A stretch of 64,000 nucleotides of DNA from Escherichia coli (GTDB lineage Bacteria; Pseudomonadota; Gammaproteobacteria; Enterobacterales; Enterobacteriaceae). How positions within the stretch are numbered: position 1 is the first letter of the stretch; the number at the start of each line of letters is the position of its first letter. The DNA is taken from the NCBI RefSeq assembly GCF_046105845.1, contig NZ_CP151004.1, one strand, 5' to 3'. Positions 1-3,000 of this stretch are shown here, one piece after another. A program made the position numbers.

Positions 1-3000
1 AATCTTTACCGGAGTGTGAGCCAAATCACTCGCGATAAGTTTGAGCGAACAATGCCACAGGCGTATTGTTGTTGGGCTTATAATTTCTCCGGTAAGGAAT
101 ACCATGTATACGCGAAATTTATTATCCGGTGCGCCGTAAGCCGTCTCGAGGGTACCCATGAGCAGGCCGCACTTATGGCAGGAGGCGCGGGGCACAGGTG
201 GAGACACTGCTAAGCTGGGCTGAACCGTATACTTACAGACGACTACTTTGATGCTTTAGGCTTCCCTGGACTCGCATAACCTCAACTTCTCGAATCGCCC
301 GGTGCGGACCCGCATGCCGAGTGGTGTGGCATGGGCGCAACCTTGTGTTGCCCCCTATGCCGATCAAGTCTACAGCAAAGAGTTGTATATCAAGACACAT
401 TGATGTCTTTATCGCCGTCGGAGCACGTCCGGCGGCGCTATTCACGCTGATCTCCTGTGACTCGACGCGGCAGATAATGTAGTATCTCCGGCAATATTGC
501 CCCTTTGAAGGCTGGCGAATAAGTTGAGGAATCAGAATTAATGAGCGATATGGCAGAGCGCCTTGCGCTACATGAATTTACGGAAAACGCCTATTTAAAC
601 TACTCCATGTACGTGATCATGGACCGCGCGTTGCCGTTTATTGGTGATGGTCTGAAACCTGTTCAGCGCCGCATTGTGTATGCGATGTCTGAGCTGGGCC
701 TGAATGCCAGCGCCAAATTTAAAAAATCGGCCCGTACCGTCGGTGACGTACTGGGTAAATACCATCCGCACGGCGATAGCGCCTGTTATGAAGCGATGGT
801 CCTGATGGCGCAGCCGTTCTCTTACCGTTATCCGCTGGTTGATGGTCAGGGGAACTGGGGCGCGCCGGACGATCCGAAATCGTTCGCGGCAATGCGTTAC
901 ACCGAATCCCGGTTGTCGAAATATTCCGAGCTGCTATTGAGCGAGCTGGGGCAGGGGACGGCTGACTGGGTGCCAAACTTCGACGGCACTTTGCAGGAGC
1001 CGAAAATGCTGCCTGCCCGTCTGCCAAACATTTTGCTTAACGGCACCACCGGTATTGCCGTCGGCATGGCGACCGATATTCCACCGCATAACCTGCGTGA
1101 AGTGGCTCAGGCGGCAATCGCATTAATCGACCAGCCGAAAACCACGCTCGATCAGCTGCTGGATATCGTGCAGGGGCCGGATTATCCGACTGAAGCGGAA
1201 ATTATCACTTCGCGCGCCGAGATTCGTAAAATCTACGAGAACGGACGTGGTTCAGTGCGTATGCGCGCGGTGTGGAAGAAAGAAGATGGCGCGGTGGTTA
1301 TCAGCGCATTGCCGCATCAGGTTTCAGGTGCGCGTGTACTGGAGCAAATTGCTGCGCAAATGCGCAACAAAAAGCTGCCGATGGTTGACGATCTGCGCGA
1401 TGAATCTGACCACGAGAATCCGACCCGTCTGGTGATTGTGCCGCGTTCCAACCGCGTGGATATGGATCAGGTGATGAACCACCTCTTCGCAACCACCGAT
1501 CTGGAAAAGAGCTATCGTATTAACCTCAATATGATCGGTCTGGATGGTCGTCCGGCGGTGAAAAACCTGCTGGAAATCCTCTCCGAATGGCTGGTGTTCC
1601 GCCGCGATACAGTGCGCCGCCGACTGAACTATCGTCTGGAGAAAGTCCTCAAGCGCCTGCATATCCTCGAAGGTTTGCTGGTGGCGTTTCTCAATATCGA
1701 CGAAGTGATTGAGATCATTCGTAATGAAGATGAACCGAAACCGGCGCTGATGTCGCGGTTTGGCCTTACGGAAACCCAGGCGGAAGCGATCCTCGAACTG
1801 AAACTGCGTCATCTTGCCAAACTGGAAGAGATGAAGATTCGCGGTGAGCAGAGTGAGCTGGAAAAAGAGCGCGACCAGTTGCAGGGTATTTTGGCTTCCG
1901 AGCGTAAAATGAATAACCTGCTGAAGAAAGAACTGCAGGCAGACGCGCAAGCCTACGGTGACGATCGTCGTTCGCCGTTGCAGGAACGCGAAGAAGCGAA
2001 AGCGATGAGCGAGCACGACATGCTGCCGTCTGAACCTGTCACCATTGTGCTGTCGCAGATGGGCTGGGTACGCAGCGCTAAAGGTCATGATATCGACGCG
2101 CCGGGCCTGAATTATAAAGCGGGTGATAGCTTCAAAGCGGCGGTGAAAGGTAAGAGCAACCAACCGGTAGTTTTTGTTGATTCCACCGGTCGTAGCTATG
2201 CCATCGACCCGATTACGCTGCCGTCGGCGCGTGGTCAGGGCGAACCGCTCACCGGCAAATTAACGTTGCCGCCTGGGGCGACCGTTGACCATATGCTGAT
2301 GGAAAGCGACGATCAGAAACTGCTGATGGCTTCCGATGCGGGTTACGGTTTCGTCTGCACCTTTAACGATCTGGTAGCGCGTAACCGTGCAGGTAAGGCT
2401 TTGATCACCTTACCGGAAAATGCCCATGTTATGCCGCCGGTGGTGATTGAGGATGCTTCCGATATGCTGCTGGCAATCACTCAGGCAGGCCGTATGTTGA
2501 TGTTCCCGGTAAGCGATCTGCCGCAGTTGTCGAAGGGCAAAGGCAATAAGATTATCAACATTCCGTCGGCAGAAGCCGCGCGTGGCGAGGATGGTCTGGC
2601 GCAACTGTACGTTCTGCCGCCGCAAAGCACGCTGACCATTCATGTTGGGAAACGCAAAATTAAACTGCGTCCGGAAGAGCTACAGAAAGTCACTGGCGAA
2701 CGTGGACGCCGCGGTACGTTGATGCGCGGTTTGCAGCGTATCGATCGTGTTGAGATCGACTCTCCTCGCCGTGCCAGCAGCGGTGATAGCGAAGAGTAAT
2801 ATGTCGGGGAGGGCGCTGTTTCCTCCCGCTTGCAAGGAACGCCGGATGAAACGTTAAGTCGTCATCCGGCAGCGTATTCAACCCCCGGAAACGATAAAAA
2901 TTCCCTTGAAACCGTTGTTTATTCATGCGTTGCGATTAACAATACGCTTTTCCAGAGAGCGGCTTTTAACAATGCCCTAACCTGATTTCAGGTGACGTAC

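Follow-up and report, generated by a model that had tools for sequence, protein, structure and literature searches.

The first 540 nt of the window, a 64,000-nt stretch of Escherichia coli DNA (contig NZ_CP151004.1 of assembly GCF_046105845.1), lie immediately 5′ of parC, whose 752-aa ORF (541–2799) starts with the ATG at 541 and is followed by plsC and ftsP. When complete E. coli genomes (5426 in total) were searched by megablast, the genome of EcPF15 gave a 100% match to this region, and its annotation places the stop codon of ygiV 5 nt upstream of window position 1. In K-12, the gene order of the same interval is ygiV–mqsR–mqsA–ygiS–parC. The preliminary description of this DNA had correctly named ygiS as the neighbour of parC in K-12, and the neighbouring gene just outside the window, which it could not place, can indeed be identified, but that gene is ygiV and not ygiS. 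Its statement that 1–540 contains no convincing ORF is borne out as well: all ORFs on a mechanical ORF list are at most 70 aa long inside this region, and the RefSeq annotation of EcPF15 carries no feature between ygiV and parC.

The composition of these 540 nt becomes apparent from their comparison with the K-12 interval (Table 1). Sensitive blastn of 1–540 against that interval, the alignment that the preliminary description had proposed, returned two matches only, one at 3–125 and the other at 362/368–540. The two flanks were thus recovered as K-12 sequence, but 126–367 (242 nt) has no K-12 counterpart, and the possibility that 1–540 is simply the conserved parC–ygiS intergenic or 3′ region is confined to 368–540, that is, to 173 nt with 98% identity to K-12. 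The left-hand match is 100% identical to the K-12 stretch running from 32 nt after mqsA to the 22nd nt of ygiS, and its portion 3–103 corresponds to the part of the mqsA–ygiS spacer that follows the mqsA terminator. The right-hand match comprises the end of ygiS and the ygiS–parC spacer, with the parC upstream region and ribosome-binding site located within 404–540. The window therefore shares with K-12 the ygiS 5′ region, the two ends of the gene and the spacer, whereas K-12 has a 929-bp mqsRA cassette and a 1.6-kb ygiS gene and the window has neither. The interior 1.55 kb of ygiS is missing, with the 242 nt in its place, and the position of the cassette is occupied by AAGAAT in the window lineage and by GGGAAT in other mqsRA-less strains. 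The frame opened by the ygiS start codon now closes at 137–139, after 11 codons (MYTRNLLSGAP). We also considered a special constraint on 3–125, which shows 0 differences from both K-12 and the B1 type, and discarded it, as other ygiS-positive lineages differ at 2 sites.

Table 1. Features of the region between ygiV and parC, in window coordinates.
Feature	Position	Strand	Basis
ygiV 3′ spacer and ygiS 5′ flank	1–103	+	blastn against K-12, junction sequences, EcPF15 annotation
ygiS, first 22 nt (ATG at 104)	104–125	+	Identical to K-12, diverging from 126
Junction nucleotides CCGGTGC, of uncertain origin	126–132		Alignments with pHum4b and other copies
Relic of the 3′ end of the intron-encoded reverse transcriptase/maturase gene	133–279	+	tblastn, DNA alignment
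Ribozyme domain V relic, 32-nt hairpin	294–325	+	Consensus fold of 9 copies; fold of 67 family members
Putative ribozyme domain VI relic	327–362	+	Consensus fold; compensatory changes
Last two intron bases (...CCGAT)	363–364	+	Boundary common to >100 copies; E.c.F12 end
CAA, neither intron nor ygiS	365–367		Junction and copy comparisons
ygiS, last 36 nt (stop TGA at 401–403)	368–403	+	Aligned with K-12 and two further ygiS alleles
Ordinary 137-nt ygiS–parC intergenic region	404–540	+	97–99% identical to K-12

Judged by its homologies, the segment 126–364 on the + strand belongs to a group II intron of class C (IIC), a self-splicing retroelement of which only the ~239 nt at the 3′ end are left. 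The upstream part of this relic derives from the intron-encoded protein. Indeed, 145–279 (frame +1) aligns in tblastn to residues 413–457 of the 456-aa LtrA of Polaromonas with 60% identity (E=2e-14), so that the remnant amounts to the last ~44 codons, that is, to the tail of the group II intron ORF only. It is interrupted by an in-frame premature TAA at 211–213, the natural stop TAA being located at 277–279. A frameshift was considered as an alternative form of damage and rejected, as the tblastn alignment stays in one frame throughout and contains an in-frame stop. The nucleotides 126–132 separate the ygiS breakpoint from the point where clear intron homology begins.

Downstream of the protein-gene tail, the relic retains the elements with which a group II intron terminates. 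The domain V hairpin has kept its shape in the window copy, with a 2-nt bulge on the 3′ strand and a tetraloop, and has suffered one C·A mismatch and a C-to-U change. Its 28-mer core was found by exact pattern search, with one genome per species, at >120 loci across many phyla (Burkholderiales, Pseudomonas, Geobacter, Verrucomicrobium, Actinomycetes, Bacillota MAGs and others), with numerous copies frequently present in a single genome. For domain VI, nine aligned copies display compensatory changes at 4 pairs, and a bulged branch-point A is located 7–8 nt from the 3′ end in 63 of the 67 distinct family sequences. The domain VI helix of the window copy is broken by a G-to-T change (U·C mismatch), and its MFE fold is devoid of the bulged A; the MFE itself is −33 kcal/mol, versus −45 to −52 kcal/mol for intact copies.

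The 3′ boundary of the intron is sharply defined, since over 100 copies from many genomes are conserved as far as GAT and show no relationship beyond it. In Polaromonas, a second intron (GTGCGCCC...) starts right after this GAT. As the copies end at ...CCGAT and the second Polaromonas intron follows without delay, the intron ends at window position 364. The next three nucleotides, CAA, were tried as part of the intron, which would make the 3′ junction with ygiS precise, and this was rejected on account of the >100 copies that end at GAT. CAA does not come from ygiS either: an allele of this gene with CAA at the junction was considered, and the three divergent ygiS alleles compared all have TAT. 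It is possibly the 3′ exon of the donor site.

Relatives of the insert are abundant. A plasmid search with 120–370 yielded 311 records; pHum4b, a plasmid of E. coli, matches the insert at 91%, and E. coli plasmids commonly harbour related degenerate copies, at 197 places. Matches of 75–80% in Polaromonas and Cupriavidus overlap the 3′ ends of ltrA genes and lie on the same strand as ltrA. The proteins of these relatives contain RVT_1 and GIIM only, with no endonuclease domain. At the 5′ junction in Cupriavidus, GCCCGCTGCGAAGCGGGCTTTTTTT is joined to GTGCGCCC, the intron beginning directly after a textbook terminator, and hairpins also precede the copies in Polaromonas and pHum4b. Insertion adjacent to a stem-loop or terminator, together with a protein restricted to RVT_1 and GIIM, are features of class C (IIC) introns; they are displayed here by the relatives only, the 5′ junction of the window copy having been lost. 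Matches of the insert to 71 Sinorhizobium plasmids had raised the alternative of an RmInt1-like (class D) intron, over which class C is favoured by the terminator-adjacent relatives and by a published assignment.

The closest points of reference are the class C introns of Polaromonas sp. JS666 plasmid 2 and Cupriavidus pinatubonensis plasmid p1, with which the relic is homologous in the protein tail, domain V, domain VI and the terminal ...CCGAT. Unlike them, the window contains only the last ~13% of an intron, without domains I–IV and without the reverse transcriptase domain; its protein tail has a premature stop, domains V and VI are damaged, and a 5′ junction next to a hairpin has not survived. 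In agreement with this, two full-length relatives give Rfam group-II D1–D4 matches, whereas an Rfam scan of window 1–700 at E≤1 gave no match, to D1–D4 or to any other family, and intron homology begins only at ~133. For domains V and VI this negative result is uninformative, given that RF00029 also misses intact relatives at its gathering score. The lack of domains I–IV means that the relic is no ribozyme and, with almost no protein gene, a premature stop and broken helices in addition, it can neither splice nor move.

Part of this element has been catalogued before. In their survey, Leclercq and Cordaux (2012, PLoS One 7:e52268; PMC3522654, Tables S2 and S3) list a group II intron fragment, “E.c.F12”, described as chromosomal, located outside mobile elements, of class C, 118 bp long and 79% similar to P.s.I1, with orthologous fragments in IAI1, SE11, E24377A and 55989 (B1 E. 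coli) and in several Shigella (PMC3522654, Table S2). Its position in IAI1 (3251207–3251324, minus strand; PMC3522654, Table S3) lies between parC and ygiV and converts to window 247–364, and its 3′ end falls on the very base at which we had independently placed the end of the intron. E.c.F12 is therefore the same locus and the same element as the relic. No mention of ygiS, ygiV or parC was found in the text and supplements of that study, and a literature search retrieved no paper combining ‘ygiS’ and ‘group II intron’. In contrast to E.c.F12, the relic is here extended to ~239 nt (upstream to ~133), includes the protein-gene tail and is placed in the gap left by ygiS; moreover, the window carries the rarer haplotype, which is 10 sites off the common one.

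The scar allele is widespread in E. coli, being present in 1353 of the 5426 complete genomes (~25%). In exactly 1353 genomes ygiV is joined directly to the scar, which means that scar and mqsRA are never found together. Sequence from the interior of ygiS occurs in 4056 genomes, and mqsRA occurs in 2299, the latter always with at least 99% identity. In consequence, the population is divided into three main haplotypes: mqsRA-positive and ygiS-positive, mqsRA-negative and ygiS-positive, and mqsRA-negative with the scar. Among scar genomes, the window haplotype is found in about 122–141 and the common type in roughly 1200. A search for the exact junction pattern in one genome per species gave 0 matches.

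How has the relic evolved since it was formed? Both scar haplotypes have the same junctions and the same premature stop, and thus go back to one common origin. Of the 239 relic sites, 10 (4.2%) differ between them and, once polarised by outgroup copies, 5 derived changes fall on the side of each haplotype. In the same genomes, the divergence of parC and ygiV at third codon positions is 3.4–6.2%. The relic has therefore diverged as much as the third codon positions of its flanking genes, which indicates that it drifts approximately neutrally. By this reckoning, the age of the relic is that of the split between the two scar lineages.

These results bear on the small RNA or long 5′ leader that the preliminary description had left open for 1–540, the leader being taken here as a structured one that would regulate parC. 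We now regard such a function as very improbable. It is true that the region has no ORF, that the promoter region and start codon of ygiS have been retained, that 65–540 contains no terminator-like site and that two hairpins are predicted at 392–437, one pair of which (395/406) has changed on both sides between lineages. Nevertheless, the hairpins (392–409 and 413–437) are part of the ordinary ygiS 3′ end and occur in all strains, no Rfam family matches at E≤1, and the central 239 nt are an intron relic with helix-breaking changes whose divergence, 4.2% against the 3.4–6.2% of the flanking genes, is that expected at the neutral rate. Furthermore, the whole arrangement is missing in ~75% of E. 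coli, where the 1.6-kb gene sits instead. The pair 395/406, in the first hairpin, is A-U in the window and G-C in K-12. A consensus scan for promoters and terminators gave hits at chance level, with one minus-strand promoter-like site and a weak terminator-like site at 52–64, and found no terminator-like site downstream of 64. In scar genomes the orphaned ygiS promoter is thus located ~440 nt ahead of parC, and neither a gene nor a recognisable terminator lies in between. The retained promoter region (3–103), in which TATAAT stands at 79–84, and the start codon may drive read-through via the relic into parC. That parC gains in this way an extra promoter and a relic-containing leader appears improbable to us, and we hold the same view of a separate proposal, that the scar records the repair of a chromosomal break mediated by a reverse transcriptase, in place of the usual intron insertion with subsequent deletion. 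The features that bring such repair to mind are a 5′-truncated intron tail, 3 nt of foreign 3′ exon and microhomology at the left junction.

Even less can be said for a small protein gene, be it ORF 16–213 (65 aa) or another short ORF, a reading to which we attach next to no credence. ORF 16–213 does offer 65 open codons behind a GTG start, but the frame is chimeric: its 5′ half corresponds to the stretch preceding ygiS, in a frame other than that of the gene (ATG at 104), and its 3′ part shares the frame of the intron-protein relic and ends at the premature TAA (211–213) of the latter. Such a frame is possible only with the scar allele, in a quarter of strains, and PGAP annotates nothing here in any of the genomes listed. 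To the preliminary description this ORF had already looked non-coding, and it can now be explained as a chance read-through. What accounts for the evidence as a whole is a deletion: we are highly confident that 1–540 is a non-functional scar of ygiS that contains the 5′-truncated 3′ end of a class C group II intron.

The anatomy, homologies, population frequency and neutral divergence described above are observations; how the scar originated we can only infer. The ancestor would have had the order ygiV–ygiS–parC, without the mqsRA cassette. Subsequently, ygiS would have been lost except for its first 22 and last 36 nt, with the ~239-nt intron 3′ end coming to lie in the gap. This could have happened by either of two routes: i) the intron inserted in or beside ygiS and its 5′ part was later deleted together with ygiS, or ii) a stretch of intron DNA or cDNA was taken up in the course of a one-step deletion. 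An intermediate allele, for example ygiS with a full-length intron, was not encountered. In the strict form of the second route, the intron never inserted into ygiS, and a piece of a plasmid intron or a 5′-truncated cDNA was captured as filler when a break was repaired; the plasmid source would be a degenerate intron copy, and the cDNA would stem from an unspliced transcript and include 3 nt of the 3′ exon. We consider this quite possible, if somewhat short of probable. It is consistent with the presence of CAA after the intron terminus in a number of related copies, among them those of E. coli and Salmonella plasmids, with the frequency of related degenerate copies on E. coli plasmids, and with the left junction, where TAT(T/A)AT microhomology and, at 126–132, 6–7 untemplated nt are seen. 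Against it, ygiS has an AGGAT immediately before the junction, similar to the AGGATGT in front of the pHum4b and Polaromonas introns, which makes an insertion in situ plausible too. The CAA at 365–367 is in itself poorly compatible with a simple precise insertion into ygiS, and neither insertion nor capture leaves a decisive trace.

Whatever the route, 1–540 is the scar of a gene deletion with an ordinary intron relic in it, one that had been catalogued before, and no new RNA element. The apparently empty 540 bp beside the essential gene parC are explained as a pseudogene scar, and the region can be taken off the list of candidate RNA elements. As for ygiS itself, the gene is absent at this locus in ~25% of complete E. 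coli genomes and in the Shigella of the 2012 survey (PMC3522654). Its product is a periplasmic binding protein that has been reported to promote deoxycholate uptake (PMC6918082). Genomes with the scar are also devoid of the MqsR/MqsA toxin–antitoxin, and therefore conclusions drawn in K-12 about mqsRA–ygiS and bile stress do not transfer to them. The relic can also serve as a small neutral marker with which to date the polymorphism.

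Strain CFSAN061768, which retains an intact ygiS (H111, NZ_CP042973.1 748719-748994), matches the window lineage at 100% identity over the left flank, in a stretch covering the 3′ end of ygiV, the AAGAAT spacer and the start of ygiS. Because closely related left flanks occur with either an intact ygiS or the scar, the sequences imply that recombination has taken place at this locus.

The adjoining mqsR-mqsA toxin-antitoxin cassette behaves as a clean 929-bp indel (5399-6327 in the K-12 locus, L002, versus 7996-8002 in the EcPF15 locus, L001, and 1071-1076 in loci L012 and L013), which begins directly past the ygiV stop codon and finishes where the mqsA terminator does. 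Alleles devoid of the cassette carry 6 nt, either GGGAAT or AAGAAT, at the corresponding place. The cassette was found in 2299 of the 5426 complete E. coli genomes, and since every copy shows at least 99% identity while the identity of neighbouring ygiS falls to 95%, sequence comparison suggests that mqsRA spread recently in the species.

Relatives of the intron relic found in the window were located in Polaromonas and on E. coli and Salmonella plasmids (see table). In Polaromonas, the second of the two introns opens with GTGCGCCC, directly abutting the terminal CCGAT of the first, an arrangement that would fit the second having used the first intron's domain VI as its stem-loop target. The Rfam D5-D6 model RF00029 did not report these two intact copies at its gathering score. 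The reverse transcriptase gene of the pHum4b copy is split into pieces, and degenerate copies of the same subfamily are present on both E. coli and Salmonella plasmids (L004, and also L005, L007 and L009), with 197 plasmid places for this subfamily in the complete genomes of E. coli. The CAA that follows the relic in the window also trails several of the degenerate plasmid copies. In genome contigs, the 28-nt domain V core was identical between very distant phyla (loci L015-L134, many of whose matches fall at contig ends), including Proteobacteria, Verrucomicrobia, Actinomycetes, Bacillota, Nitrospiraceae, and Latescibacterota and Krumholzibacteriota MAGs.

Coordinates of predicted hairpins and of related introns
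Feature	Position	Location	Basis
Hairpin over ygiS stop codon	window 392-409		fold and lineage comparison
10-bp GC-rich hairpin, CGCCGTCGGA-GCACG-TCCGGCGGCG	window 413-437	ygiS-parC spacer	fold
Two related full-length IIC introns, in tandem	L003 ~1378-3208 and 3209-5090	Polaromonas sp. JS666 plasmid 2	
Near full-length intron of the window relic's subfamily	L004 ~2419-4224	E. coli plasmid pHum4b	

Where the window has A-U at pair 395/406 of the stop-codon hairpin, K-12, the B1 type and other ygiS+ strains have G-C, a lone compensatory change that hints at a role for the hairpin. The minimum free energy fold of the window copy favours a slightly different pairing. As for the GC-rich hairpin, no T run follows it, and it is not a canonical terminator.

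Other gene-content differences separate EcPF15, the strain of the window, from K-12. Upstream of the window (L001 1-3830), EcPF15 carries a block adjoining ygiN with genes for two FecCD-type permeases, an iron-siderophore binding protein and a MurR/RpiR regulator; in K-12, parE is directly adjacent at this place. EcPF15 also lacks ygiZ, which in K-12 separates mdaB from qseC.
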